Shown here: positions 5,301-60,005 of the stretch, one piece after another | Layout: each line of letters starts with the position of its first letter | Position numbering within the stretch: position 1 is the first letter of the stretch | NCBI RefSeq assembly: GCF_028369095.1 | Contig: NZ_JAQNDN010000024.1 | Location: 89,350 to 153,349 of the forward strand | Direction: 5' to 3' | Source of the DNA: Nannocystis radixulma | GTDB taxonomy: Bacteria > Myxococcota_A > Polyangia > Nannocystales > Nannocystaceae | DNA length: 64,000 bases | Program-made: the position numbers and the translations under genes | The notes under the pieces: model-generated | What the model was told of the DNA's origin: nothing | Database searches by the model: none | Seen by the model: only the letters and a program-made list of their open reading frames with translations

Positions 5301-6414
5301 CCTTGTCGGTGGTGTTCTTGTGGCCGTACCAGAACAGCACCGCCGAGAAGCCGCGCATGCTGTCGGGCGTCTTCTGGTGGTAGTGGAAGGGGACGACGAT
5401 CAGGTTCTTGACCGACTTGTTGCCCCACCGCCACACGAACGGGAACTGGCCGAAGCTGAACTGCTCGCCGACCCGCTTGTAGCCCATCAGCAGCGCGACC
5501 GCGCCCCAGCCGCTGGTGCGCTCGCTGAACGAGCCGAAGAACAGGATCGCCGGCGACAACCACCGCCGCTTGGCCGTGCGCTGGCTGTACCAACCTGTCG
5601 TCAAGGACAGGTTGAAGTGGAACAGCTTCTCGGGGTGGGTCGCGGTGCCGCGGCGGTCGAAGAACAGCGGCGGCAGCGTCAGCGCGCGCGTGCGGTGCGT
5701 CGTGTAGGTGCGGTCGATCCAGAACGGCGGGACGCTCTTGCCCTTGAGGAAGCGCGGGACCTCGTCGGCCGGGTCGGGCTTCTCCGGCTCGGGCACCAGC
5801 ACCGTCACCGGCGGGGCGTTGTCGTTGGTCGGCTCCGGCGCCGGCGCGACTTCCTCGTCGCCGGCCTGGAGATCGTCGCCGCTCGGCGCCGGCGCGAGGT
5901 TCGGGGTCGGCCGCGTCAGCGGGCTGCCCGTGGGGCCAGGTCCCGAAGGCCCTGGCTGAGCGGGCATGTCCTCGGGGACAGGCTCGACCGGCGCGGCCGT
6001 CTCGCTCGCGGGCGGCTCGCTCGCGGGCGGCTCGCCGGCGGGCGGCTCGGCCTGGCCGCCGGGCAGGCGCCGCGGGGTGGTGCGCGGCGGGGCGAGCAGC
6101 AGCGGCGCGCCGAGGCCGGCGACCAGGTCGGCGGGGCGCAGCCCGGGCGCGGCGTGCAGGGCCGGCCAGGTCGGCGCGCCGGTCGAGGCGATCATGCCGA
6201 GCTGCGGGACGGGGCCCGCGGCGTGGCTGTCCCGAGGGACAAGTCCGATCAGACAGGCGCCGATCAGGCAGGCCGACACTGTGGCGACGCGCGTGTGGAT
6301 GACGGCGCCGACGACCGGGACGTCGCCGGGCGCGTCGAGCTGGGGACTCGCGTCGGCGCCTCCGAGGCGCACAGTGGGCTCAGAGGCGACCAAGGGCCGG
6401 GAGGCAATAGCCAA
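2365..6414 (-). CDS. Giant (~1350 aa) tandem-repeat protein with ~50 copies of a 20-24-aa unit around a P-L-F / P-L-(L/V)-x-W core; probable N-terminal signal-anchor and Pro-rich linker; no confident family
   Basis: Uninterrupted ORF with protein-like Y/F/W/K/R-rich repeats such as ...TPLFWHRRDTD, ...APLVFAGRDDKY, ...PLFYRRQKDG. N-terminus has a hydrophobic segment VATVSACLIGACLIGLV then P/E/A-rich spacer. The true start may be downstream of 6414, since the 5966-6414 region contains GGACA-family repeats. Confidence 0.7.
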   Translation of the reverse strand: MAIASRPLVASEPTVRLGGADASPQLDAPGDVPVVGAVIHTRVATVSACLIGACLIGLVPRDSHAAGPVPQLGMIASTGAPTWPALHAAPGLRPADLVAGLGAPLLLAPPRTTPRRLPGGQAEPPAGEPPASEPPASETAAPVEPVPEDMPAQPGPSGPGPTGSPLTRPTPNLAPAPSGDDLQAGDEEVAPAPEPTNDNAPPVTVLVPEPEKPDPADEVPRFLKGKSVPPFWIDRTYTTHRTRALTLPPLFFDRRGTATHPEKLFHFNLSLTTGWYSQRTAKRRWLSPAILFFGSFSERTSGWGAVALLMGYKRVGEQFSFGQFPFVWRWGNKSVKNLIVVPFHYHQKTPDSMRGFSAVLFWYGHKNTTDKDPLNDLRYFVGFPLFYRVTRGPSTVNVGVPLYIGGQNKARGVKWHTVLPLVHWQSSEYGNRKDLWTLLYVQRSDKARSLRAWAVPPLLTFSHQTPTRKLFSATPLVWRSENRDRGSVAWSAFPWVSYRDPEQRNRVLFPLFWQFGDVKAGVTSSVFVPLLYARKSPQDTRVYTLLGGGRAGKDGRWGFGITPLLTFVRNEPGGKSFQVVTPLFGHSHDPSAYDGKGSRTLSAGVLGFYRRRGERWDAGLAPLAFVGRDGTRSYQTITPLFWHRRDTDPAKPSDLWVLGPIYAKKVKSGGHGGLAPLVFAGRDDKYRYGIVPPLLFGHVHDVEAQRALTVSPLFARSKGPDHRTIGVLNLFWDVKRAGDERHTALFPLFYRRQKDGKTLTLTPLGGAYRTPEQRTWSAAALLYGFRGYKDPVRRGFGLIPLVFYDRRKVEGGVASNLVIAPLFARHRAPSEDLDMWSPLVWRTATRGEKPRKNLAVVPFYFRQRQPEGIDVDAGLLLPFFYSRDKVRRTHTLIAGPAFHRLTRTSLNAGVVPVYWWMDSAEKRRLISLPLIFHQADKGKNEHTTIAVPFWFDRQRANGRRSWVAFPFVVGVKGQFNFTRFSLAPPIFFDFFRLHKNYRFTGVVPFAFRYQKCGFREEDDDRCRYTLWGSWPFFLYGKDGKGRTSHGALMLYYFDKDPGGRRFLTLLGGANVRPGERLTWYALNFGHTTTRQFKTTVFFPLFFRKAYRTKDRSTTVVLPPLFVGAHREDYRWFQAGLMVWNFRRPHKVTTVVAPPLFYTAHSYAERRMTWLLPLFLRDNNWAKDTSFTSVFPALVFQRRRGQDNDWVQFPLIWHIERGENSGTFGAFLWWDIRRKGRVTQVVPAIWARQRGRGRETQVIGPGLGWWWRTEQAISDAKGDGIGVKKGLHWRALFGLIGGGNDGAQRYFSLFGGRIPLRPKAVWEPRRKRLKAQTPAAPKALAPVEPAQPKP

Positions 6415-12150: not shown

Positions 12151-12591
12151 ATGCGCGTGCACCTCGGCAGCGACCACGCGGCGATCGACCTCCGGCGCGA
12201 GCTCGCGGCGGCCGTGGCCGCGTTCGGCCACGAGGTCGCCAGCGAGAGCGGGCCGGCCGCGGCCAGCGAGTCGGTCGACTACCCCGACGTCGCGGTCGAG
12301 GTCGCCCGCCACGTGCGCGCCGACCCGGGCTCGCTCGGCCTCCTGGTCTGTGGGACAGGTCAGGGCATGGCCATGGCCGCCAACAAGCAGGCGGGCATCC
12401 GCGCCGCGGTGGTGATGGATCCGTTCAGCGCGGCGATGGCCCGCGAACACAACGACGCCAACGTGCTCTGTCTGGGCGCGCGGGTCGTCGGCGTCGAACT
12501 GGCGAAGGTCCTGCTCAGGACCTTCCTCGACGCCCGCTTCGCCGGGGGGCGCCACGCCCGGCGAGTCGAGAAGCTGGAGCCCGGGGGGTAG
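12151..12591 (+). CDS. rpiB: Ribose-5-phosphate isomerase B (RpiB/LacAB family)
   Basis: Begins MRVHLGSDHAAIDLRREL... Contains ...LLVCGTGQGMAMAANK... Confidence 0.9.
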   Translation: MRVHLGSDHAAIDLRRELAAAVAAFGHEVASESGPAAASESVDYPDVAVEVARHVRADPGSLGLLVCGTGQGMAMAANKQAGIRAAVVMDPFSAAMAREHNDANVLCLGARVVGVELAKVLLRTFLDARFAGGRHARRVEKLEPGG

Positions 12592-12592
12592 G

Positions 12593-13210
12593 TTGCTCTG
12601 CCCGGTCTGCCGCAGCGGTAGCATCAAGGTCCTCGACTCGAGGGAGAGTCGGGACGGCGGTGCGATCCGGCGGCGCCGCGCGTGCCTCGACTGCAACCAC
12701 CGCTTCACCACCTACGAGCGTATCGAGACCACGCCGCCGATCGTGCTCAAGCGCGGCGGAGGCAAGCAGCTGTTCGATCGCAACAAGATCCGCGCCTCGC
12801 TGCAGGCGGTCTGCCGCAAGCGCCCCGTCGATGACGAGCAGATCGAGGCGCTGCTCGGCGTGGTCGAGCTGTGGGCCGCGACGCGCGGCGAGAAGGAGAT
12901 CCGCGCCGAGGAGATCGCCGACCGGATCCTCCGCCTGCTGCGCCCGCTCGACGCCGTCGCCTACGTGCGCTACGTCGCCATCCACGGCGAGTACCAGGCG
13001 GTCGACGAGTTCGTGCACCTGCTGAACGAGATGGAGAAGGCCGCGCACACCAGCCCGGAGGGCCAGCGCACGCTGTTCGAGATCGACGCCCGCGGGCAGA
13101 TCCAGCTCAGCGCGCCGACCCGGCTGGCGGCCTTCCCCGAGGGCGAGGACGAGGCTGACTCTGGGGACAGGTCCGCGCCGGCCGCGTCGCCGGAGAGCGA
13201 GGTCAATTGA
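12593..13210 (+). CDS. nrdR: Transcriptional repressor NrdR (Zn-ribbon + ATP-cone) with ~50-aa C-terminal extension
   Basis: TTG start 2 nt after the rpiB stop. MLCPVCRSGSIKVLDSRE...CLDCNHRFTTYE... The tail ...ADSGDRSAPAASPESEVN is encoded by a GGACA-family repeat copy. Confidence 0.9.
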   Translation: MLCPVCRSGSIKVLDSRESRDGGAIRRRRACLDCNHRFTTYERIETTPPIVLKRGGGKQLFDRNKIRASLQAVCRKRPVDDEQIEALLGVVELWAATRGEKEIRAEEIADRILRLLRPLDAVAYVRYVAIHGEYQAVDEFVHLLNEMEKAAHTSPEGQRTLFEIDARGQIQLSAPTRLAAFPEGEDEADSGDRSAPAASPESEVN

Positions 13211-14442
13211 TCCACCCCGAGCTCGTTGACCTGCTCGGCGGCGCGAGCGGGACCGCAGACGACGGCCCGAGGGCGATCGCGGCGGCGCTGGCGAGCGCGC
13301 CGGTCGCAGACGAGTCGCCGACGGCACGCGACGTGCGACTGATGGGCGCGGCCGTGGCGCTGGCCCGCTCGGGCACCGGCGCGACCTACCCGAACCCGTG
13401 CGTCGGCGCGATCGTCGTGCAGGGCGAGAAGGTCGTCGGCGCCGGACGCAGCGCGGTCACCGGGGGCCCGCACGCCGAGGTCGCCGCGCTGCAGCAGGCC
13501 GGCGAGGCCGCGCGCGGGGCGACGGTCTACGTCACGCTCGAGCCTTGCTCGCACTTCGGCCGCACGCCGCCGTGCACCGGGGCGCTGATCGCCGCCGGTG
13601 TCGCCGAGGTCGTGATCGGCAGCCTCGATCCCGCCGTGCACGCCGGCGGTCGCGGGATCGAACTGCTGCGCGCGGCCGGCCTCCGCGTGCGTGAGGGCGT
13701 GCTCGCGGGCGCGTGCGCGTCTGCGCACGAGCACTACCTGCACCACGAGAGGACGCGGCTGCCGTTCGTCACGCTGAAGATCGCGTCGTCGCTCGACGGC
13801 CAGATCGCGGCTGGCTCGGGCGACAGCAAGTGGATCACCGGCGAGCCGGCGCGGCGCCTCGGACACTGGTTGCGCGCCCGTCACCACGCGATCGCCGTGG
13901 GCGCCAACACGGTGCTGCGCGACGATCCCGCGCTGTCGGTGCGCATGGTGACCGGCGTCGACCCGCTGCCGGTCATCTTCGACAGCGGGCTGCGCGTGGC
14001 CGGGGCGGTGCGTCGGCCGACGTTGCTGCGGCCGGGCACCGTGGTGCTGCACACCAGCCGCGCTCCCGCCGCGGCGCAGCGGGCGGTCGAGGAGCTCGGC
14101 CTGCGGCGCATCGAGCTCGACGGCGATGCCGAGGGCCGGGTCGATGTCGCCGGCGCGTTGCAGGCGCTGGGCAAGCTGCCGCTACGTTCGCTGTTGGTCG
14201 AGGGCGGCGGGCGGATGATCGCCAGCTTCGTCGCCGCCGCCGCGTGGCAGCGGTTCTATTGGTTCCATGCGCCGATCGTGCTGGGTGACGGACGACCCGC
14301 CGCCGCCGGCCTCAAGGTCGCGGCGGTCGCCGACGCCACGCGGCTTCGTCCGCTGCTGCGCACCGACGTCGGGGTCGACGGCCTGACCGTCCTCGGCCCG
14401 CCGGCGGACGCCGCCGACGATCTCGCAGGACGCGAGATCTGA
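13207..14442 (+). CDS. ribD: Bifunctional riboflavin biosynthesis protein RibD (deaminase/reductase)
   Basis: CMP/dCMP deaminase motif HAEVAAL...TLEPCSHFGRTPPC plus a C-terminal RibD reductase domain. The start may instead be ATG at 13342 (MGAAVALARS). Confidence 0.85.
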   Translation: MIHPELVDLLGGASGTADDGPRAIAAALASAPVADESPTARDVRLMGAAVALARSGTGATYPNPCVGAIVVQGEKVVGAGRSAVTGGPHAEVAALQQAGEAARGATVYVTLEPCSHFGRTPPCTGALIAAGVAEVVIGSLDPAVHAGGRGIELLRAAGLRVREGVLAGACASAHEHYLHHERTRLPFVTLKIASSLDGQIAAGSGDSKWITGEPARRLGHWLRARHHAIAVGANTVLRDDPALSVRMVTGVDPLPVIFDSGLRVAGAVRRPTLLRPGTVVLHTSRAPAAAQRAVEELGLRRIELDGDAEGRVDVAGALQALGKLPLRSLLVEGGGRMIASFVAAAAWQRFYWFHAPIVLGDGRPAAAGLKVAAVADATRLRPLLRTDVGVDGLTVLGPPADAADDLAGREI

Positions 14443-14502
14443 CGCATCCGGCGGGCTTTGCGGGCCGTCGCACCGGCCGGTGATCTGTGCCATAACCCCC
14501 GC

Positions 14503-15267
14503 ATGTTCACCGGCCTCGTGCGCGGCGTCGGCACGGTCGAGCGCGTGATCCCTGGCGCGCAGCGACGCACCTTCGTGATCCGCTACGCGCTGTCGGAGGG
14601 CGATCGCAGCCTCGGCGCCAGCGTCGCGATCTCCGGCGTGTGTCTCACCGTGGTCGCCTCGACCGCCAGCGAATTCACCGTCGAGGCCGCGTTCGAGACG
14701 CTCGCAGTCACCACCCTGGGCGAGCTGCGGCCCGGCAGCCGCGTCAACCTCGAGCCGGCGCTGCGGCTCGGCGATGCGCTCGGCGGTCACCTCGTGTCCG
14801 GCCACGTCGACGGCCTGGCGCGCGTGCGCAGCCGGGTCGCCCGCGGCGACGCGGCCGAGATGTGGTTCGACGTCCCGGCCGAGCTGGCCCGCTACATCGC
14901 GGTCAAGGGCAGCGTGTGCGTCGACGGCGTCAGCCTCACCGTCAACGCCGTCGACCCGCGCGGGTTCGCCGTGGGCCTGATCCCGCACACGCTCACGGCC
15001 ACGACCCTGGCCGACCTGAAGGTGGGCGACGCGCTCAACCTCGAGGTCGACCTGCTGGCGCGCTACGTCGCCCGCCTGCTCGGCTCCGAGGCCGAGGCCG
15101 GCCGCGCTGCCGCGCCCGCGCTCACGCGCGAGGCCCTGGTCCGCGCCGGCTACGTCGACGCCGCGGCCGGCTACGCCGACAACGCCGCCGCGCCCGCCGT
15201 GAATGCTGACTCCGGGGACAGGTCCGAAGCGCCCTGTCCCGAAGTACCTGTCTCCAAGAACAGCTAA
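14503..15267 (+). CDS. ribE: Riboflavin synthase alpha subunit RibE, with ~50-aa C-terminal tail
   Basis: MFTGLVRGVGTV... Two lumazine-binding repeats (GASVAISGVCLTV / GSVCVDGVSLTV). Tail ...NADSGDRSEAPCPEVPVSKNS is encoded by GGACA-family repeat copies. Confidence 0.85.
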   Translation: MFTGLVRGVGTVERVIPGAQRRTFVIRYALSEGDRSLGASVAISGVCLTVVASTASEFTVEAAFETLAVTTLGELRPGSRVNLEPALRLGDALGGHLVSGHVDGLARVRSRVARGDAAEMWFDVPAELARYIAVKGSVCVDGVSLTVNAVDPRGFAVGLIPHTLTATTLADLKVGDALNLEVDLLARYVARLLGSEAEAGRAAAPALTREALVRAGYVDAAAGYADNAAAPAVNADSGDRSEAPCPEVPVSKNS

Positions 15268-15271
15268 AGAC

Positions 15272-16424
<1,153 letters not shown>

Positions 16425-16432
<8 letters not shown>

Positions 16433-17747
16433 GGCTGGCGCCACGGACATGTCCCAGGGGACACGTCCGCGGGGCCGTCGCGTCCTGCTGATCGTCAGCG
16501 GCGGGATCGCGGCCTACAAGGCGCCGGAATTGGTGCGGGCGTTCGTCGCCGCCGGCTGCGAGGTCCAGGTGGTGATGACGCCGGCCGCGGAGGCGTTCGT
16601 CAGCGCGCTGTCGCTGGCGACGGTCTCGACCCGGCCGGTGCGCACGCGCCTGCTCGACCCGGAGGAGGAGGGCCACGTCGGCCACATCGAGCTCGCCGAC
16701 TGGCCCGACCTGGTGGTCGTCGCGCCGGCCACCGCCGACCTGCTGGCGCGCGCGACCCACGGGCTGGCGAACGACCTCGCGGCGACGGTGCTGCTGGCCA
16801 CGCGCGCGCCGGTGCTGTGGGCGCCGGCGATGAACACCAACATGTGGCGCCACCCGGCCACGCAGGACAACCTGGCGACGCTGCGCGCCCGCGGGGCCGA
16901 GTTCGTCGGGCCCGATCGCGGGCAGCTGGCGTGCGGGTGGATCGGCGAGGGCCGCATGATCGATCCGCCGCTGATCGTCGCCGCCGCGCTGGCGCGGCTC
17001 GGCGTCGGCCCGGCGAGCCGCGGGCCGTGGGCCGGCAAGCGCGTGCTGGTGTCGGCCGGGCCGACGCGGACGTACATCGATCCGGTCCGCTTCGTCACCA
17101 ACGCGTCGACCGGGGCGATGGGCTTCGCGCTGGCCGACGCGGCCCAGCGCGCCGGCGCCTCGGTGACGCTCGTGGCCGGACCGGTCGAGCTGGTCACGCC
17201 GGCGGGCGTGCGCCGCGTCGACGTCGAGACCGCGGCCGAGATGCAGGCGGCGCTGGAGAACGAGCTGTCTCAAGGGCCATGTGATTGGGTGGCCATGGTG
17301 GCGGCGGTGCAGGACCTCGAGATCGACGGCGGTGCCGCGCGCAAGCTCGAGAAGGCGGAGCTGCTGGCGACGCTGCCGACGCTCGGCTGGCGGGCCGCGC
17401 CCGACATCCTCGCCGCGCTGACGGCCCGCTTCGGCCGCGGCGCGGCGCCGGGCGCCCCGCGCTCGCGCTTCCTCGGGTTCGCGGCGCAGACGGTCGAGGA
17501 TGGCCCCGAGGACAGGTTGCAGCAGGAGCTGATCCGGCTCGGCTCGGTCAAGCTGCGGGCCAAGGGCGCCGACGCGATCTTCGTCAACCGCGTCGGCGCG
17601 CCCGGGGTCGGCTTCGCGTCCGCGACCAACGCCGGCCTGTTGCTGGCGCGCGACGGCGACGCGATCGCCGTGCGCGCCTCGGGCCCGCCGATCGCCAAGG
17701 CGGCGCTGGCCGCCTGGCTGCTCGACGCGCTGGCCGCGACGAGCTGA
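16425..17747 (+). CDS. coaBC: Bifunctional phosphopantothenoylcysteine decarboxylase/phosphopantothenate-cysteine ligase CoaBC
   Basis: RVLLIVSGGIAAYKAPELVR flavoprotein domain plus C-terminal CoaB ligase domain. The likely start is ATG at 16449, inside a GGACATGTCC repeat. Confidence 0.9.
16445..16468. repeat. GGACA-family palindromic repeat pair (GGACATGTCC-cagg-GGACACGTCC) at the ribBA/coaBC junction
   Basis: Read directly. The internal ATG (16449) is the likely coaBC start. Confidence 0.8.
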
Positions 17748-17761
17748 CGGAGGATCTCGCA

Positions 17762-19198
17762 GTGGAAGGCGATCGACGCGACGCGACCCGGCGGCTGGCG
17801 GTTCAGTTCGCCGCCCACCTGCGTCACCTCCGGGAGTTCCGGGGTTTGGCGTACGTGTCCGCCGCGTCCTCTCCGCGTCGCGCCGGCGCGCCGAGTTCCG
17901 CGCCCGAGGAGCGATCGCCGGCTCCGGACAGCACCTGGTCGTCCGGACAGGTGACCGATCACGCCGCCGCGGACGCGCGCACACCGACATGGCCCGAAGA
18001 CCAGGCCAGATCCGCCCGCGATTCCGGGCCGCGAGCGCGCACACAACCGGGCCCGGCGGCCTCGGGGCCGCCGCCGCAGGAGATGAAGCGAGGGCGCGCG
18101 CAGCCGGGCCCTGCGGACTGGGAGCCGTCGCAGGAGACGACACGCGGTCGCGCGCAGGCGGGCCCCGAGGACTGGGAGCCGTCGCCGCAGCCGGACCCCG
18201 GGGACTGGGAGCCGTGGCCGCCGCAGGAGACGACACGCGGGCGCGCGCAGCCGGGCTCCGGGGACTGGGAGTCGTCGCAGCAGGAGACGACACGCGGGCG
18301 CGCGCAGCGGGAGTCGCCGCCGCAGGAGCCGACGCGAGGGCGCGCCCAGCGGGGCCCTGCAGAGTGGGAGTCGTCGCCGCCGCAAGAGGCACCGCGCTCA
18401 CGCGCCGCGACCCCGCCGTCCGCGGAGCCGCCGCGCGCTCGCACGGTCAACCAGCAGCCGGCCGAGCCGTCGCCGCGACCCCGGACGGTCAGCCTGCCGC
18501 TGGCGGATCAGGGCACACCGCCGCGTGCGGCCGAGGGCGCGCCGCGCCCGGCCGGCGATGCCTCGCTGCGCACGCAGGCTCAGGCGTGGACGCCGGCGCA
18601 GAAGCTCGAGTACTTACGGGCTCGTAACGTCGGCGACTGCACCCGCTGCAAGCTCTCGAAGACCCGCACGAACATTGTATTCGGCGTCGGCGACCCCAAC
18701 GCGCGGGTGATGTTCATCGGCGAGGCGCCCGGCGCGGACGAAGATCGGCGCGGCGAGCCGTTCGTCGGCGCTGCCGGCCGGCGGCTGACACAGTGGATCG
18801 AGCGCCTGGGCATGAAGCGCGAGCAGGTCTACATCGCCAACGTGCTGAAGTGCCGGCCGCCCGGCAACCGCGAACCGGCCGCCGACGAGATCGAGAAGTG
18901 CTCGCCGTTCCTGCGCGCCCAGATCCGGGCGATCCGCCCCGCGGTGATCGTGGCGCTCGGCAGGTACGCGGGGATGTTGCTGATCGGCACCGATCAGGAT
19001 CTGAAGTTGGCACAGATGCGCAACCGTCGTTGGACCTACGACGACCCAGGTGCAGGCCTGCAGATCCCACTTCACGTCACGTATCATCCGTCGTACGTGA
19101 TCCGACGCGAGGGTGAACTCCCTCCGGGGCAGCGAAACCCGGCCGACGACACGGTGATGTCGGACCTCGAGCGAGCGCTGCGCGTGCTGCGAAGTTGA
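17762..19198 (+). CDS. Family-4 (UdgA-type, Fe-S) uracil-DNA glycosylase with long N-terminal disordered tandem-repeat extension
   Basis: C-terminal ~200 aa: [52 protein letters not shown]...HPSY. GTG at 17762 is preceded by GGAGG at 17749-17753, just after the coaBC stop. The nearest in-frame ATG is at 18083, so at least ~165 aa of repeat region is translated. Confidence 0.7.
18075..18410. repeat. Tandem ~57-bp coding repeats (protein units ..[18 protein letters not shown]..) in the udg 5' region
   Basis: Read directly. Both strands show long ORFs here purely because of the repeat. Confidence 0.7.
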
Positions 19199-19413: not shown

Positions 19414-20073
19414 ATGACGAAGGCTGAACTCATCGAAAAAATCGCACGCAACCGTGATCTGCCGCCGGACATCACGAAGAAGTGCGTGCAGCAGATCCTC
19501 GAGATCGCGTTCGGGGAGATGGCCGCCTACTTCGTCAAGGCGAGGGTGACGCGGGCCCAGAGCCCGCGCTTCACGTTCCCCGGCTTCGGCACCTTCACCA
19601 AGAAGAAGCGCTCGGCTCGCAAGGGCGTCAACCCGCGGACGCTCGAGCCGATGACGATCGATGCGGCCTTCACGATCGACTTCCGTCCGGGCGTCGAGCT
19701 GCGCGCCAGCCTCAACGCTCCGGCTGGCAAGTCCGCCCCCGCGGCTCGGAAGCGGCGCGCCAGCCCGGCCCAGCTCGAGCTCGAGCCGCCGAGCGCCGAT
19801 CCGACCGAGCTCGACGAGGTCGACGAGGAGGATGTCGGCGAGATGAGCGACGAGGCCGACGCGGCCGACGAGGCGCTGATCCTCCGCCGCCGCTTCACCG
19901 CCCGCGAGGACCTCGAGGAGGACGACGCCGACGACGAGTTCGACGAGGTCTCGCTCGACGTGCTGCGCCGCAGCCAGCCCGCCGACCCGCGGCTCGAGCT
20001 GCCGCCGGCGCCGATGCAGCGCGCCGACGTGCCGGGCCGCCGCGCCCACGTACGCACCGGCTCGCGCTCCTGA
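19414..20073 (+). CDS. HU/IHF-family DNA-binding protein with ~120-aa Asp/Glu-rich C-terminal tail
   Basis: MTKAELIEKIA...RFTFPGFGTFTKKKRSARKGVNPRT is the HU fold. The tail is ...DEVDEEDVGEMSDEADAADE...EEDDADDEFDE. Confidence 0.85.
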   Translation: MTKAELIEKIARNRDLPPDITKKCVQQILEIAFGEMAAYFVKARVTRAQSPRFTFPGFGTFTKKKRSARKGVNPRTLEPMTIDAAFTIDFRPGVELRASLNAPAGKSAPAARKRRASPAQLELEPPSADPTELDEVDEEDVGEMSDEADAADEALILRRRFTAREDLEEDDADDEFDEVSLDVLRRSQPADPRLELPPAPMQRADVPGRRAHVRTGSRS

Positions 20074-20180
20074 GAGCTGTCCCGGGGGACATGGCAGCAG
20101 CCGGCCGACCCGCGGCTCGAGCTGCCGCCGGCCGATGCAGCGCGCCGGCTCGCGCTTCTGAGAACTGTCCCCGCGGACAT
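19961..20180. repeat. Partial tandem duplication of the 3' end of the HU-like gene, ending in GGACA-family motifs
   Basis: gccgacccgcggctcgagctgccgccgg...gctcgcgct(c/t)ctgaga(g/a)ctgtccc..ggacatg occurs twice: 19975-20092 and 20093-20180, with internal deletions. Confidence 0.6.
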
Positions 20181-20247: not shown

Positions 20248-20802
20248 TCACTGCGGCGCGGCCAGCTTGGCCCCGTTCTTGGGCGGCTCGGTCGGCTTGG
20301 GGGTGCCGGTCAGGGTGGCGGGCTTGGTCGTCGGCGCAGCGCCGCCGTTGGAGATGGTGCTGGTCTTGGGCTTGGACTCGCCGGTGGTGAGGCTGAGGCC
20401 GGCCTTCTGCGTGCCGTCACGCGGGGTGGCCTGGGTCCCCGGATCGAGGCGGGCCGGCGTGGGGTCGGTGGCGCGGCCCGGCTTGGGATCGGTGGCGCGG
20501 CCCGGCTTGGGGTCGGTGGCGCGGCCCGGCGTGGGCTCTTCGGTCGGCTCCGGCGCGGGCTCGGGAGTGGTGGTGGCGGGCTCGGGCTCGGGGGCAGGCT
20601 TGGGGGCGGGCTTGGCAGCGGGAGCCGGAGCAGGTGTGCTCGACGTGTCGACCGCGGCCTGGCGCGCCGGCTTGCCCTTGCCGTTCTTCGTCCCGTTGGT
20701 GGTGCCTGGCGCCGTTCCGGAGCGGCTCGACGACGAATACGAGAAGGAGCAGGCGGGCAGCGAGAAGGCGATGGCCATGAAGACCGGAAGGAGCTTGCGC
20801 AT
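20248..20802 (-). CDS. Putative secreted/lipoprotein, Pro/Thr/Ala-rich low-complexity with GRATDPKP x3 repeats
   Basis: Signal peptide MRKLLPVFMAIAFSLPAC. The alternative plus-strand ORF lacks protein-like features. Confidence 0.55.
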   Translation of the reverse strand: MRKLLPVFMAIAFSLPACSFSYSSSSRSGTAPGTTNGTKNGKGKPARQAAVDTSSTPAPAPAAKPAPKPAPEPEPATTTPEPAPEPTEEPTPGRATDPKPGRATDPKPGRATDPTPARLDPGTQATPRDGTQKAGLSLTTGESKPKTSTISNGGAAPTTKPATLTGTPKPTEPPKNGAKLAAPQ

Positions 20803-27171: not shown

Positions 27172-27595
27172 GTGCATAGGACATGCTCGGTGGAGCATGT
27201 CCTTGCGGACAGCCATCTCCGTCCGGGAGAGCATGTCCTCTTGGACATGGTACATGCGACACCGCCGCGCTCGCCGCCGCTCGATGAGCCGTCCCGCACG
27301 GCGACAAGCGGGGCCGGCGACGCTCTTCGCAGGCGGGCACGGAGCGGCGGAGTGGGACGCCGGCGGGAGGGGCCGCAGGCAACCGCGCGCAGGCGCCATC
27401 GTCCGCCAGGCACGAACGAACCTGTCCTCAACGACGGATCAACATCGAAGCCCACGGGCGCCGAGCACGTTGCCTGGGAGGGCCCCGCCGAAGCGAGCCG
27501 AAGCGAGGGACCTGCTCCGCCGCTCCGTGCCCGCCGTCACCCAGCTCTCCACGGCCCCGCGTCTTCGGTCGCGCGCTTGTCTCAGACAGGCCCCT

Positions 27596-28471
27596 CTAGC
27601 CGAGGGCGAGGACGGCGAGGCCGAGGACGACGAGGTAGGGCACGAAGGGGACCACGCCGACGCGGACGAGCAGGACCAGCAGCACGCGCAGGGTGGCGAC
27701 GCCGACGACGAAGCTGACGAAGAAGCCGACGACGAAGGCCAGCGGGTCGACGGCGGGCAGGCCCTCCTTCATCAGGTCGAGCGCCTCCTTGAGCGAGGCG
27801 CCGAGGATGGCGGGGATCGCCAGCAGGAACGAGAAGCGCGCGGCCGGCAGGCGGCCGAGGCCGAGGCCCATGGCGGCGGCGATCGTCGAGCCGCTGCGCG
27901 AGATGCCGGGCAGGATGGCGACGAGCTGGGCGAGGCCGATGAGCAGCGCCTGCAGCGGCCGCGGGACCTCCTGCGGGCGCCGGCGCTTGCGGGTCAGCCA
28001 CTCGGCCAGGCCCAGCATGGCCGCGGTGACGAGGAAGCAGGCGCCGATGGCCTTGGGGTGGTGCTCGGCGGCGATGACGAGGTTCTCGACCGGCGGGGCG
28101 AGGGCGGCGGCCAGCGGCAAGGTGCCGATGACGAGCGCGAGCAGCAGCGCCCGCGCGTCGGTCGGCGAGCTGCCCGAGGGGACATGTCCCTCCGAGCCTG
28201 GCGTATCGGGCATGCGCTCGGGGACATGTCCCGGACGCAGCACGGCGCGGGCCAGCGCGAGCAGGTCGTCGCGGTAGTGGATCAGGACGGCCAGCAGGGT
28301 GCCGGCGTGGACGACGATGTTGAACGAGTGGCCGCCGGCGCCGGCGTCGAGGCCGGCGACGCGTTGGGCCAGGGCGAGGTGGCCGGACGAGGAGATCGGC
28401 AGGAACTCGGCCACGCCCTGGAGGGCGCCGAGGAGGGCGGCGAGGCCGAGGTCGAGCTCGGGGGCGGACAT
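27596..28471 (-). CDS. uppP: Undecaprenyl-diphosphatase UppP/BacA, with ~25-aa loop insertion encoded by two GGGACATGTCCC copies
   Basis: ...GISRSGSTIAAAMGLG... Insertion RPGHVPERMPDTPGSEGHVPSGSS corresponds to nt 28178-28232. Confidence 0.9.
   Translation of the reverse strand: MSAPELDLGLAALLGALQGVAEFLPISSSGHLALAQRVAGLDAGAGGHSFNIVVHAGTLLAVLIHYRDDLLALARAVLRPGHVPERMPDTPGSEGHVPSGSSPTDARALLLALVIGTLPLAAALAPPVENLVIAAEHHPKAIGACFLVTAAMLGLAEWLTRKRRRPQEVPRPLQALLIGLAQLVAILPGISRSGSTIAAAMGLGLGRLPAARFSFLLAIPAILGASLKEALDLMKEGLPAVDPLAFVVGFFVSFVVGVATLRVLLVLLVRVGVVPFVPYLVVLGLAVLALG
28178..28232. repeat. Two GGGACATGTCCC copies inserted in frame in uppP
   Basis: Read directly. Confidence 0.8.
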
Positions 28472-32595: not shown

Positions 32596-35145
32596 CTAGG
32601 CGCGCGAAGCCAGCAGGCACAGCGCGCCGTGGAGGTCGAGGTCGACCTCGACCTGCATGCCGGCGCGGATCTGGCCGCGCAGGATCGCGTCGGCCAGGAG
32701 CGCCTCGACGCTGCGCGTAAGGACATGTCGCAAGGGACGTGCCCCAAGAGACATGTCCTTTCCGCACAGCGAGACGACGTGGCGGGTGGCGGCCTCGGTG
32801 AGGCGGTAGCGGATGCCGCGCTCGCGCAGCAGGCGGTCGGAGGAGGCGCGGACCAGGCGGGCGCAGATCCGGGCCAGCTGCTCGCCGCCGAGCGGGTGGA
32901 GCACCAGCGGGGCCTCGATGCGGTTCCACAGCTCGACCGGGAAGGCGGCGCGGGCGGCCTCGAGCACGCGGGCCTCGTCGAGGCGGGCGTCGCCGGTGGC
33001 GTCGAGGCAGGTGGCGCCGAGGTTCGAGGTCATGATGATCGCGGCGTGGCGGAAGTCGATGGTGCGGCCGCGGCCGTCGGTGAGGCGGCCCTCGTCGAAC
33101 ACCTGCAGCAACAGCTGGTGGACGTCGCGGTGGGCCTTCTCGATCTCGTCGAGGAGGACGACGCAGTGCGGCTGCTTGAGCAGCGGGTCGGTCAGCGCGC
33201 CGCCCTGCTCGTGGCCGACGTAGCCGGGCGGGGCGCCGACGATCCGCGCGACCGCGTGGGCCTCGGCGTACTCGCTCATGTCGAGGCGGACGAACGCGTC
33301 GGGGCGGTCGAACAGGGCGCCGCACAGGGCCTTGGCGATCTCGGTCTTGCCGACGCCGCTGGGGCCGAGCAGGAGGACGGTGGCGATCGGGCGCTGCGAG
33401 CCGAAGCCGGCGCGGTTCCTGCGGATCAGCTGGGCGATGGCGGCGAGGGCGTGCTCGTGGCCGACGACCTTGCGCGCGAGCTCGGCCTCGAGCTCGAGCA
33501 TGTCCTGGTGGCCCTGGCCCTCGAGGCGCTCGCGCGGGACACCGCTGCGCTCGCAGACGATGTCGACCCAGGTGTCGCGCTGGACGGCGCCGCGGCCCTC
33601 GCGGGCGGTGCGGGCGCAGGCGAGGTCGAGCAGGTCGAGGCTGCGGCCGGGCTGGGCCAGGCCGGCGAGGAAGCGGTCGGACAGGCGCACGAGCTCGGCC
33701 AGGCGGCTACCTGACCCGAGAGACAGGCCGTGCTGGGCCAGCACCGCCGGCGCGGCGGCGGCCACGGCGGCGCGCAGGTCGTCGCCCTCGAGCGGCTGGA
33801 GGGTGACGAGGTCGAGGGCGGCGGTCAGGCCGGGGGCCCAGGCGCACAGGCGGGCCTGACCCTCGGGCGAGGCGACGGCGACGATCGGCGGCTGTCCCGA
33901 AGACCAGGCCTTGGCGAGGGCGCCGAGCAGCGCCGGCGGACCGTCGCCGCCGAGGCGGTCGAGGTCGTCGAGGATGGCGACGCCGCCCTGTTTGGCGATC
34001 GCAGCGAGGTCGGCGCGCAGGCCGTCCTCGTCCTCGTAGCGGGTCGCGGACAGGTAGAAGACCGGTTGGTGGAGCAGGCCGGCGAGGTGCTTGGCGACCA
34101 GCGTGCGGCCGCTGCCGGCCGGACCCACGAGCAGCGGCGGGCGCGGCGAGCGGCGCAGGACGGCGTCGGCGAGGCGCGCCAGCTCGCCCTCGCGGCCGTG
34201 CAGCGGCGGCAGGGCCGAGGGGTCGATCGGGCTCAGGCGGTGGCTGCGGGCCTCGGGCTGAGGCGCGGGGGCCGGGCGCGGCTCGGGCTCGCTGGCCGGC
34301 GCGACCTGGGCGTTGGGACCTGGCTTGAGGGACAGGGCCGACGGACGGCCGGGCTCGGGGCGGGCGGGCAGGCGCGGCTGGGTGCGGGTCGGGGCGCGCG
34401 TGAGCAGGCGCGGCGAATCGGACTGGTCTTCGGGCCAGGTGCGGGCGGCGTCGAGGCGGGCGCGGGCCGGATGGTCTTCGGGCCAGGTGCGGACGTCGGT
34501 CGGTCGAGGCGAGCGCGTGGCAGGCTGGCCTTCGGGCCAGGTGCGGGCGCCGCCGCGGGCGGGGCGGGGCTGGGCCTCGCTGGCGCCTGTCCGCGGGGAC
34601 ATGTCGCCCGTGCGACCGTCGGCGAGCGAGCGGCGGACGGGGCGCTCGCCGGCGGCGACGAGGGTGGACATGCGCTGGACGACGGGGCGCCGCGGCATGG
34701 CTGTCTCGGAGGACATGGCCGATGCGACATGGCGTGAGGGACCTGTCCCGGTGAGCGCGGCGGCCTCGAGCGCGCGCAGGCGGTCGATCAGCAGCTTGCG
34801 CAGGGTGCCGCAGGCGGCGCCGGCCCGCTCGAGCAGCTGGTAGGCGTGCGAGTCGGCGGAGCGGACGAGGGCGAGCAGGAGGTCGAGGTCGGGATCGGCG
34901 GCGCGACCCCCGCGCTGGGTGATCCGCAGGCGCCAGTCGGCCGGCTCGGTCTCGACCTCGGCGTGCAGCTCGTCGACGAGGGCGCGCAGGCGGGCGACGT
35001 CGAGGCCGTGCGCGGCCAGGACGCCCTGGACCGAGTCGGCGGCGCACAGCGAGAGCAGGAGCTCGCACGAGCAGCCGGCCCGCGGCCCGGCTTGCGAGGT
35101 TCGGCGCGAGCCGCTGCGCACGCCAGGCTCCGGGGATCCGATCAT
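32596..35145 (-). CDS. Atypical Clp/Hsp100-family AAA+ ATPase: single Clp-N repeat, ~250-aa disordered insert with RTWPED repeats, degenerate AAA-1, canonical AAA-2
   Basis: AAA-1 has Walker A GPAGSGRT and Walker B ILDDLD. AAA-2 has GPSGVGKTEIAKAL and VVLLDEIEKAH, and ...GARPLRHVL. Confidence 0.75.
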   Translation of the reverse strand: MIGSPEPGVRSGSRRTSQAGPRAGCSCELLLSLCAADSVQGVLAAHGLDVARLRALVDELHAEVETEPADWRLRITQRGGRAADPDLDLLLALVRSADSHAYQLLERAGAACGTLRKLLIDRLRALEAAALTGTGPSRHVASAMSSETAMPRRPVVQRMSTLVAAGERPVRRSLADGRTGDMSPRTGASEAQPRPARGGARTWPEGQPATRSPRPTDVRTWPEDHPARARLDAARTWPEDQSDSPRLLTRAPTRTQPRLPARPEPGRPSALSLKPGPNAQVAPASEPEPRPAPAPQPEARSHRLSPIDPSALPPLHGREGELARLADAVLRRSPRPPLLVGPAGSGRTLVAKHLAGLLHQPVFYLSATRYEDEDGLRADLAAIAKQGGVAILDDLDRLGGDGPPALLGALAKAWSSGQPPIVAVASPEGQARLCAWAPGLTAALDLVTLQPLEGDDLRAAVAAAAPAVLAQHGLSLGSGSRLAELVRLSDRFLAGLAQPGRSLDLLDLACARTAREGRGAVQRDTWVDIVCERSGVPRERLEGQGHQDMLELEAELARKVVGHEHALAAIAQLIRRNRAGFGSQRPIATVLLLGPSGVGKTEIAKALCGALFDRPDAFVRLDMSEYAEAHAVARIVGAPPGYVGHEQGGALTDPLLKQPHCVVLLDEIEKAHRDVHQLLLQVFDEGRLTDGRGRTIDFRHAAIIMTSNLGATCLDATGDARLDEARVLEAARAAFPVELWNRIEAPLVLHPLGGEQLARICARLVRASSDRLLRERGIRYRLTEAATRHVVSLCGKDMSLGARPLRHVLTRSVEALLADAILRGQIRAGMQVEVDLDLHGALCLLASRA

Positions 35146-52716: not shown

Positions 52717-52989
52717 GGAGCTGTCTCTCGGGACATGTCATGGTGACTTGGAGGACATGTCCTCCGGGGCATGCCGATGGCGATGAGGATGTGCTGTTCA
52801 CCTGGTCGACTGCGCGCGGGGCGAATTTGCGCGCGAAAATCGAGGCGATCGGACGCGACGGAAAGGGCGTAATGGCGGCTGGGGCTGGCGACGGGGCAGG
52901 AATGCTCGCCATCGCGCGAAGTGGCCTCTTGCCTGGAAATGAAACGCGTTCTAGATGTGTAGAACGCGTTTCACAGAGGACGAATCTCC

Positions 52990-54405: not shown

Positions 54406-55167
54406 ATGACGGCTGCCCCGATCCCCGGCGAGCTCACCCTCGTCGACGACCGCGCCCGCCGAATCCTCGACGCGGCAGTCCGACTCGCCGAGTCCGGCGG
54501 GTTCTCGGCCGTGCGCCTGCGCGATGTGGCCCAGGCGTCCGGCGTGGCCCTGGGCACGGTCTACAAGCGCTTCCGCAGCAAGGAAGACCTGCTGGTCGGA
54601 GTGCTGTCGCTCGAGCTGGTGGCGCTGCGCGAGCGCTTCGGCGATGCACCACTCCCCGGCGCGACCCGCCTCGACCGCCTGATCGAGTGCTTCGCAGCGC
54701 TGACCGAGACGCTGTGCGCACGACCGCATCTGGGACGCGCGGTGATCCGCTCGGCGGCGACGGGAGAGAACGCGCTGGCCGAACGACTGCACCGCTTCCA
54801 CAGCGCGCTGATGGAGCTGATCGTGGGGGCGATCCGCGGCCGCGACGAGGGACCGGTGACGGCGACGGAGCTCGAGATGCTGGCTGTCCTGCAGGATGTA
54901 TGGTTCTCTCGCCTGGTCGGCTGGACGGCGGAACTGCACGGGCCGGAGACGGTGGTGGAGCAGGTGGCTCGGGCGGCTCGGTTGCTTTACGGGGCGATCG
55001 AGGGGGCAGGCTCGTCCGGGGAGATTCGCTCGGGGGGATCTGAGTCCGAGGAGATTCGCTCGTCCGGAGGGGCTGAGTCCGGAGAGCTTCGCTCGTCCGG
55101 AGGCGCGGGGGCTGAGTCCGGAGAGCTTCGCTCGTCCGGAGGCGCGGGGCATGGAAGAACTGGGTGA
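54406..55167 (+). CDS. TetR-family regulator with ~60-aa C-terminal tandem-repeat tail (SGEIRSGGSES / SGELRSSGGAG x4)
   Basis: ATG at 54406 preceded by GGGGAG. HTH ..FSAVRLRDVAQASGVALGTVYKRFRSKEDLL. The stop TGA lies inside the MITE-like element. Confidence 0.8.
   Translation: MTAAPIPGELTLVDDRARRILDAAVRLAESGGFSAVRLRDVAQASGVALGTVYKRFRSKEDLLVGVLSLELVALRERFGDAPLPGATRLDRLIECFAALTETLCARPHLGRAVIRSAATGENALAERLHRFHSALMELIVGAIRGRDEGPVTATELEMLAVLQDVWFSRLVGWTAELHGPETVVEQVARAARLLYGAIEGAGSSGEIRSGGSESEEIRSSGGAESGELRSSGGAGAESGELRSSGGAGHGRTG
55010..55150. repeat. Tandem ~33-bp minisatellite (gctgagtccggagagcttcgctcgtccggaggcgcggg, 2 perfect plus 2 degenerate copies) forming the TetR C-terminal tail
   Basis: Read directly. 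Confidence 0.8.
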
Positions 55168-55400
55168 CGGCGGGCACGGAGCGGCGGACTTGGGTCCCTC
55201 GCTCGGCGGGCCCCTACCGGTTCACGTGCTCGGCGCTGTCTCTTTGGACAGGATGGTCTTGAGGACAGGTTCGTCGAGTCGGCACAGGACGGGCGCCTGC
55301 GCGCGCTGAACCGCGTCTCCGTCCCACCGGCGTCCCAAATCCGCCGCTCCGTGCCCGCCTCTCGACGATCGTCGCGGGCCCCGCTCGTGGCGGGGCGGGG
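55153..55400. mobile_element. MITE-like ~250-bp element copy A with ~26-bp terminal inverted repeats GGCGGGCACGGAGCGGCGGA(C/T)TTGGG
   Basis: About 90% identical to 59745-60005. Left inverted repeat 55169-55194. Right inverted repeat ends 55359 (ccgccgctccgtgcccgcc). Contains GGACAGG motifs internally. Confidence 0.65.
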
Positions 55401-57725: not shown

Positions 57726-57811
57726 CGTGACCCTTGGGACAGGTCCGTACGCGTTCGCCCGGGAACATGGGGAGCTTCGCCGTGTGGACCTGGCCATCAG
57801 GACATGTTCAT
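57726..57811. repeat. GGACA-family array (GGGACAGGTCC ... GGACATGTTCATGGGGACATGG) upstream of the membrane-protein gene
   Basis: Read directly. Confidence 0.75.
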
Positions 57812-59744: not shown

Positions 59745-60005
59745 GCCCGGAAGAACCGGGTGACGGCGGGCACGGAGCGGCGGATTTGGGCCCCTCGCTC
59801 GGCCTCGCTCGGCGGGCCCCTACCGGTTCACGTGCTCGGCGCCTGTCGCTGCGGACAAGATGCTCTTGAGGACATGTTCATCGCGCGCGCGCAGGACAGG
59901 GCGCCTGCGCGCGCTGAACCGCGTCTGGTGTCCCACCGGCGTCCCAAATCCGCCGCTCCGTGCCCGCCTGCAGCGAGCGTCGCGGGCCCCGCTCGTCGCC
60001 GGGCG
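59745..60005. mobile_element. MITE-like element copy B
   Basis: Aligns end to end with 55153-55400. Has the same terminal inverted repeats plus a 9-bp internal duplication (cctcgctcgg). Confidence 0.65.

Follow-up and report, generated by a model that had tools for sequence, protein, structure and literature searches.

We find that two near-identical 22-nucleotide (nt) sequences close to the 3' ends of the genes nrdR and ribE in Nannocystis radixulma are probably ordinary members of a family of phased palindromic DNA words that is specific to Nannocystis and very abundant there. Both lie in the 64-kb window that was analysed as a whole (64,000 nt of contig NZ_JAQNDN010000024.1, forward-strand positions 89,350 to 153,349; all coordinates below are positions in this window), and both are translated, giving NrdR and RibE the same heptapeptide, ADSGDRS, in their C-terminal tails. 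That the 22-mers are plain family members and that ADSGDRS is an incidental read-through of the DNA word in a stop-poor genome is, in our assessment, very likely, and a rib-specific role of the 22-mer is not supported. For the rib operon the outcome is deflationary: the ADSGDRS tail needs no operon-specific explanation.

Copy 1 of the 22-mer, GCTGACTCTGGGGACAGGTCCG, occupies 13154-13175 in the tail of NrdR, and copy 2, GCTGACTCCGGGGACAGGTCCG, occupies 15205-15226 in that of RibE, both on the plus strand and both in the ADSGDRS frame, as the original prediction had it. Other parts of that prediction need adjusting. The copies are present where they were said to be, but they match at 21/22 positions and are thus near-identical instead of identical, and they do not terminate their genes: the nrdR stop (TGA, 13208-13210) comes 32 nt after copy 1 and the ribE stop (TAA, 15265-15267) 38 nt after copy 2. 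A location 30-50 nt upstream of the next start is correct, with 32 nt from copy 1 to the ribD TTG (13207) and 46 nt from copy 2 to the ribBA ATG (15272). The claim that homologs lack the tails has to be restricted, since the motif is present at both positions in five other cultured Nannocystis genomes, and the ribE copy on one metagenome contig (L087), all with the same tails, so that copy 1 is kept in 6 genomes and copy 2 in 7; the more distant Nannocystis metagenome-assembled genomes (MAGs), which lack a 22-mer match, have diverged, and comparison of orthologous C-termini reveals tails of similar length there with a diverged or shorter version of the motif. The closest related locus is that of N. 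pusilla Na p29.

The 22-mer consists of a degenerate half-site (TGACT), a 4-nt spacer and GGACA|GGTCC, i.e., 1.5 periods of a family in which GGACA and TGTCC half-sites follow each other in turn, with a strict period of 14 nt (...TGTCC-N4-GGACA|TGTCC-N4-GGACA...; consensus C-M-TGTCC-N4-GGACA-K-G). With at most one mismatch, the pattern TGTCCNNNNGGACA (TGTCC-N4-GGACA) is found at 39 sites in the window against 1.76 expected, 15 of them exact, a 22-fold excess over dinucleotide shuffles, and the core GGGGACAGGT, again with at most one mismatch, occurs 21 times against 4.4 expected. A position weight matrix (PWM) trained on the 39 sites, which leave out both rib copies, retrieves 70 sites in the window compared with 0.2 per shuffled window at the same threshold, or about 70 sites for about 40 genes. 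Half-sites are spaced by N4 exclusively (15 exact occurrences; the remaining spacings between 0 and 25 give none), GGACA|TGTCC in abutting form is seen nine times, half-sites of the same type lie 14, 28 or 42 nt apart 15 times against 0.2 in shuffles, and the units form seven intergenic clusters where 0.24 are expected. Two alike doublets of ~60 nt (5932-5983 and 28178-28229), near the 5' ends of minus-strand open reading frames (ORFs), each hold two palindromes exactly 42 nt, or three periods, apart.

Within this family copy 1 is a solitary unit of 1.5 periods, TGACT (13156-13160)-CTGG-GGACA (13165-13169)|GGTCC (13170-13174), whose left arm merges two variants that recur elsewhere, TGACC and TGTCT; a second TGACT-N4-GGACA variant starts at 52743. 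Copy 2 forms the opening 1.5 periods of a four-period phased array at the ribE-ribBA junction (15207-15267), which ends at the ribE stop codon and has left half-sites at 15207, 15221, 15235 and 15249 and right half-sites at 15216, 15230, 15244 and 15258. A strong unit of this array, TGTCT-CCAA-GAACA (15249-15262), scores 19.7 bits; the array also contains a 10-bp inverted repeat, GGGGACAGGT / ACCTGTCTCC, and its phasing is present in all 7 genomes. The rib copies themselves score 15.4 bits (copy 1, rank 53 of about 70) and 13.4 bits (copy 2), both outside the training set. Their similarity is the top of a continuum within one repeat family, and near-identity needs no special explanation: over 2,402 pairs of family members compared in register, a 22-nt identity of 21 occurs once, 20 four times, 19 13 times and 18 48 times. 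The closest other relative of the 22-mer, TGACCCTTGGGACAGGTCCG, lies at 57728-57747 between two minus-strand genes.

The density of sites is ~1/kb in the window, 0.8-1.2/kb at cultured Nannocystis loci and 0.3-0.5/kb in Nannocystis MAGs, and drops to zero in a Nannocystaceae MAG (L008) and three Polyangiaceae MAGs, while other GC-rich loci hold 3 sites in 501 kb (0.006/kb), ~170-fold fewer than Nannocystis. Metagenomes scanned for the 19-nt core gave eight matches, too sparse for copy number: six chance matches on low-GC contigs, the ribE-ribBA junction of L087, and one on L085, a metagenome contig with a GC content of 0.74 that carries the exact core CTGACTCTGGGGACAGGTC within positions 1-160, at the contig end, in an intergenic position downstream of kdsA-kdsC-like ORFs. 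Viral sequences scanned for the double unit returned isolated chance matches only, without a link to phages, and the literature searched, with incomplete coverage, holds no earlier description of the motif or of any REP-like family in Nannocystis or other myxobacteria.

Conservation follows the half-sites. Across 13 sites in six genomes, identity is 93.2% in the arms, 73.1% in the spacer and 70.1% in the flanks, with 85.8% for the mostly coding region as a whole. At the rib sites the invariant core across alignments is CTGAC(T/c)C(Y)(G/c)GGGACAGGTC. The codon preceding GAC is GCT, ACT or CCT, its first position varying and changing the amino acid while the third-position T is fixed, and two rare codons, TCT and AGG, are retained although third positions in the genome are ~95% GC. 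Because the third-position T and these rare codons stay fixed while amino acids change, the constraint seems to act on nucleotides and not on the peptide.

An RNA stem is not supported either. Family-wide, the two arms are complementary in 355 pairs against 351.8 predicted from column composition (P = 0.33), double changes number 3 among 84 non-consensus arm pairs, and sense-strand variants that would form G.U are not significantly more numerous than those that would form A.C (23 vs. 15, P = 0.26). Copy 1 folds no better than its shuffles (z of 0.07 and -0.58), copy 2 forms a hairpin (z = -1.98), and the abutting palindrome GGACA|TGTCC is unable to fold alone. We rejected an RNA-structure reading of the 22-mer on the unfolded state of copy 1, the one-sided changes described below, and the lack of excess complementarity and of G.U bias. 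The family is thus maintained by selection or active homogenisation of the half-site sequences as such, and base-pairing is not what is being kept.

The units concentrate at gene ends, although they are not confined to them. A unit of at least 13.4 bits starts 2-11 nt past the stop codon at 9 of 41 gene ends, where ~0.44 would be expected from mean density, and 29 of 69 family sites are not covered by any modelled ORF. Nowhere is the combination of invariant arms and free spacer plainer than at an HU-like gene, which is followed by stop-proximal TGTCC-N4-GGACA units at 20078-20091 and 20166-20179: the unit past its stop at 20073 keeps TGTCC and GGACA in all six genomes, with the spacers ccgc, gcga, gccc, gaac, ctgc and gaat. 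A local duplication downstream of this gene (19975-20010 = 20098-20133) doubled the stop-proximal unit (20078, 20166), and other species likewise have two units there. Similarly, two phased units, GGACATGTCC-cagg-GGACACGTCC, span the spacer between ribBA and coaBC together with the start codon of the latter (16436-16463; ATG 16449), with invariant arms and the spacers cagg, caag, ctgg and tcag among six genomes.

Sites within coding regions occupy all three frames (13:7:2), show 28.9% A/T at codon position 3 against a background of 4.9%, and include units within RpiB, DFP, ClC, LamB and alpha-amylase domains. The RpiB unit (12344-12357, 14.3 bits by PWM) lies in the active-site motif LLVCGTGQG, spelled with the rare codons TGT GGG ACA GGT; it is nearly invariant among six genomes (2 differences in 34 columns), all six of which use TGT GGG ACA GGT. 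Because the CGTG stretch aligns without gaps to solved RpiB structures in the PDB, units can arise by substitution and not by insertion alone.

Comparison with the distant relatives suggests different histories at the two rib sites. In two of these lineages (L005 and L006) a single unit, GGGCC-GAAG-GGACA, of 13.9 and 11.3 bits, respectively, is followed directly by an ATGA in which the ribE stop and the ribBA start overlap. The word GGGACAGG at the end of ribE is read there as GGG ACA GG(T/A), or G-T-G, and in the cultured clade as GGG GAC AGG TCC, or G-D-R-S; because the reading frame differs, the lineages share the DNA word and not the peptide. The ribE-ribBA array therefore grew by about three periods (~1.5 to ~4.5; ~42 nt) in the cultured clade, so that two formerly overlapping cistrons were moved apart and RibE gained element-encoded codons, and the distance from unit to ribBA start is 5 nt in L005 vs. 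46 nt in the window. At nrdR, a further distant relative (L007) carries TGACC-CGCA-GGACA at the same place (15.7 bits), and the tail and its unit are older than the split from the distant relatives. The suggestion that the element simply extended the ORFs by removing ancestral stops is therefore apt for ribE, where the array moved the stop downstream, but not for nrdR, where the tail pre-exists and the unit lies inside it.

Several explanations compete for the shared 22-mer. Chance similarity in a GC-rich, codon-biased genome gains some plausibility from a naive estimate, by which ~0.3 pairs matching at 21/22 would be expected in 64 kb of 72% GC. An all-against-all search of the window, however, finds only 23 direct 21/22 pairs. 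All but the rib pair belong to evident repeats, tandem or dispersed, so coincidence does not account for it; both copies also pass the PWM threshold that shuffled windows so rarely reach, both sites are conserved in orthologs, and chance is effectively refuted. Hardly more credible is a functional peptide, with DSGDRS selected in the protein as, for example, a degron or an interaction tag common to NrdR and RibE. The heptapeptide is retained in most of 13 sequences and the NrdR tail of L007 keeps D-x-x-D-R, but residues within the motif are substituted (S>P, G>R, and A, T or P at position 1) while synonymous rare-codon positions are fixed, the codons of the downstream array vary freely at the protein level, and the word, read in another frame at the ribE end of L005 and L006, is mostly non-coding elsewhere. 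A rib-specific intercistronic signal upstream of ribD and ribBA, serving translational coupling, processing or a non-canonical response to flavin mononucleotide (FMN), is in our view very unlikely, too. In its favor, the copies precede the next start by 32-46 nt in adjacent genes of one operon, this arrangement is conserved in six genomes, and regulation of the operon is otherwise unexplained, as no FMN riboswitch is detectable. Yet the original idea that the element was co-opted as a coupling or processing signal for the rib operon meets ~70 family members at many unrelated gene ends and in coding regions, among which the rib pair is no outlier in similarity. Units occupy three of the four junctions of nrdR-ribD-ribE-ribBA-coaBC, with two units over the coaBC start codon at the non-rib junction ribBA-coaBC, and the ribD-ribE junction has no family unit. 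The distance from unit to ribBA start differs by lineage, as noted above. Copy 1 has no conserved RNA structure, and copies 1 and 2 have no fold in common; the junctions show no Rfam match, no sigma-70 promoter-like site and no terminator, the sole terminator-like site (14239-14254) lying away from them. Coupling of nrdR to ribD needs no 22-mer, because the ribD TTG start and the nrdR stop share TTGA, orthologs keep this (G/T)TGA overlap, and a conserved GAGG lies intact 7 nt upstream. The family as a whole may still have a general role at junctions.

More serious is the alternative that the family acts on RNA or single-stranded DNA in the manner of repetitive extragenic palindromic (REP) sequences and bacterial interspersed mosaic elements (BIMEs), with TGTCC-N4-GGACA mini-hairpins (up to 7 bp with flanks) near stops and between cistrons that block 3' exonucleases, serve as processing sites or stall terminating ribosomes, and so set the relative expression of nrdR/ribD, ribE/ribBA and ribBA/coaBC; a transposase of the REP-associated tyrosine type (RAYT) would be a possible agent of their spread or homogenisation. 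We consider this rather unlikely and rank it second, behind recognition of double-stranded DNA (dsDNA). Short palindromes with a common consensus, in many copies and in arrays of alternating orientation, correspond to the definition of REPs (PMC12306157), the strong enrichment 2-11 nt past stops and the intergenic clusters agree with it, and a passage of that paper, citing Liang et al., describes E. coli REPs at such a distance from the stop as stalling ribosomes. The ribE-ribBA hairpin (z = -1.98) also fits an RNA stem. Against it stand units in conserved protein domains that were born by codon choice and not by insertion, the missing compensatory changes and sense-strand G.U bias, the unstructured copy 1, abutting units that cannot fold alone, the weakness of a 5-bp stem within arrays, and the absence of a RAYT among the window ORFs.

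Tentatively, and with slightly less than balanced confidence, we instead favor dsDNA recognition by a sequence-specific protein with a genome-wide role of the kind proposed for HIP1 or uptake sequences. The family would be read as strand-symmetric dsDNA by a probably dimeric protein, in a role that is not gene-specific; nucleoid organisation, methylation or repair marking, and self-DNA recognition are candidates. Units build up right after stops and at cistron junctions and are also made inside coding sequences by codon choice. Stop codons being scarce at 72% GC, units at gene 3' ends are often read through, and ADSGDRS is common to NrdR and RibE because the unit happens to fall in one and the same frame in both genes, the peptide itself being very likely incidental. 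Several points weigh against dsDNA recognition. Strong stop-proximal placement is typical of REP-type mRNA elements and has not been reported for HIP1, and the window ORFs include neither a RAYT nor a methyltransferase gene. The 10-bp hairpin of the ribE-ribBA array, GGGGACAGGU / ACCUGUCUCC, is paired in 98.6% of cells across 7 genomes, with one-sided GC>GU changes only on the mRNA strand; this pattern is compatible with an RNA stem and equally expected from in-phase half-sites, and compensatory pairs are absent both here and in the family-wide arm test, a test of low power since the PWM picks near-consensus sites. The densities derive from one 64-kb window, orthologous loci and small MAG fragments, and the 19-nt core recurs in only one other possible context (L085), maybe by chance.

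Among known systems the family resembles HIP1 (Highly Iterated Palindrome 1), a lineage-specific short palindrome that is tens- to hundreds-fold over-represented, occurs about once per gene within and between ORFs, and is conserved between genomes beyond background, implying selection (PMC5861425). The Nannocystis family likewise shows an excess (22-fold over shuffles and ~170-fold over other GC-rich DNA) that falls in the 15- to 300-fold range of such palindromes, with at least about one unit per gene, and cross-genome conservation in and between ORFs, with arms at 93% against 70-73%. HIP1, however, is an uninterrupted 8-mer, GCGATCGC, of cyanobacteria that is tied to orphan methyltransferases and has no reported positional preference at the gene level, whereas the Nannocystis units are interrupted 5-4-5 palindromes in 14-nt phased arrays with strong enrichment right after stops. 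Sequence, architecture and phylum all differ, and we rejected the identification of the family with HIP1 itself. REPs and BIMEs of Enterobacteria and Pseudomonads are palindromic units of 14-40 nt with a consensus, in many copies 3' of genes or between cistrons and often in alternating arrays, and REPs located up to 15 nt from a stop influence translation (PMC12306157). A short palindromic consensus unit in many copies is what we find as well, but REPs are extragenic by definition and RAYT-linked, whereas Nannocystis units often lie in conserved coding domains, both rib copies being translated, arise by substitution and show no pairing-driven covariation. The density of REPs in E. coli is ~5-10 times below that of the Nannocystis family.

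The DNA uptake sequences (DUS) of Neisseria and the uptake signal sequences (USS) of Pasteurellaceae reportedly occur about once per kb, are specific to a genus or family, constrain codons and peptides where they fall in coding regions, and often form inverted pairs just downstream of genes. The Nannocystis family, too, has ~1 site per kb, is lineage-specific and includes coding regions, but it is palindromic, whereas DUS and USS are non-palindromic 9-12-mers read by uptake machinery. Rickettsia palindromic elements (RPE) are said to be repeats translated in frame inside host genes, and mycobacterial interspersed repetitive units (MIRU) are described as intercistronic repeats with ORFs that overlap neighboring stops and starts. 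RPE and MIRU are mobile or tandem block insertions of 40-150 bp, whereas the Nannocystis unit, with its 14-nt period, often stands alone and frequently stems from point substitution. An in-frame insertion of 100-150 bp of the RPE type can be set aside given this period, the diverged nrdR unit in distant relatives and the gap-free RpiB alignment; the expansion of the ribE array (~42 nt) is the only insertion-like event. A structured cis-regulatory RNA, such as an FMN riboswitch or another Rfam family, was likewise rejected for lack of relevant covariance-model matches and of compensatory pairs.

With somewhat more reserve still, we suggest that the family may be an undescribed system of the HIP1/USS class, (GGACA|TGTCC-N4)n, with ~10^4 copies per genome by extrapolation, selection on half-sites and a dedicated DNA-binding factor. 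If so, Myxococcota would have their first known genome-wide word of this kind, one that overrides codon bias and reshapes protein C-termini, cistron junctions and even a stretch coding for an active site, and its strict 14-nt phasing and stop proximity would make its function experimentally approachable. Hyperabundant lineage-specific words (HIP1, DUS/USS, REP) are few and their functions debated, and the rules are sharp here: 5-4-5 half-sites, a 14-nt phase, starts 2-11 nt past stops, conserved arms and a free spacer. A family that shapes codon usage and protein ends in a myxobacterial genome of 11-13 Mb offers a tractable case for asking how words of this kind are maintained. Those who call genes, search for motifs or recode sequences in Nannocystis, which produces natural products, also have to reckon with it in practice, and annotators should not take such tails for functional peptide motifs.

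The genes around the two copies are all on the plus strand. The 205-residue NrdR (12593-13210) has a Zn-ribbon (residues 1-42) and an ATP-cone (50-127) by Pfam, followed by a 78-residue tail (128-205) that contains copy 1, and ribD (13207-14442; deaminase and RibD_C domains by Pfam) starts in overlap with the nrdR TGA. The riboflavin synthase RibE (14503-15267, 254 residues) has two lumazine-binding domains up to residue 183 and a 71-residue tail with copy 2 and the array, and ribBA (15272-16432; DHBP synthase and GTP cyclohydrolase II by Pfam) begins at the conserved start ATGAGCGAAACG. Directly before copy 2, the RibE tail has an insert of ~30-33 nt (~15175-15204) that is specific to the window. 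From an ATG at 15203 a frame runs through the array into ribBA; an equivalent ATG exists in L087 but in none of the five other cultured species. We rejected this in-frame ATG as the ribBA start, as five species lack it and an in-frame TAG lies upstream in N. punicea. No FMN riboswitch or other Rfam family reaches its gathering score anywhere in the window, despite the presence of ribD, ribE and ribBA, and nothing relevant appears in the operon region (12300-16700) at E<=1. The gene ribH is not adjacent to the rib genes, and coaBC comes after ribBA. In N. pusilla Na p29 (L009 6001-6734), ribE falls into two tblastn segments in different frames with an ORF ending at 158 residues, a break that represents an assembly frameshift or a pseudogene.

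The window contains further repeats. An element resembling miniature inverted-repeat transposable elements (MITEs) is present in three copies of ~200-240 bp (27328-27548, 55153-55391 and 59749-59999), bounded by terminal inverted repeats of 23-29 bp (GGCGGGCACGGAGCGGCGGA...) and each with palindrome-family units inside; a 39-nt tandem duplication (55068-55150) adjoins one of them. Coding repeats, tandem or near-tandem, are found at 20454-20535 (24-nt period) and 34423-34552 (~48 nt), another (18124-18311) lies in the long N-terminal region of a UDG-family ORF (17285-19198), and DUF4215-type Cys-rich repeats occupy 669-991.

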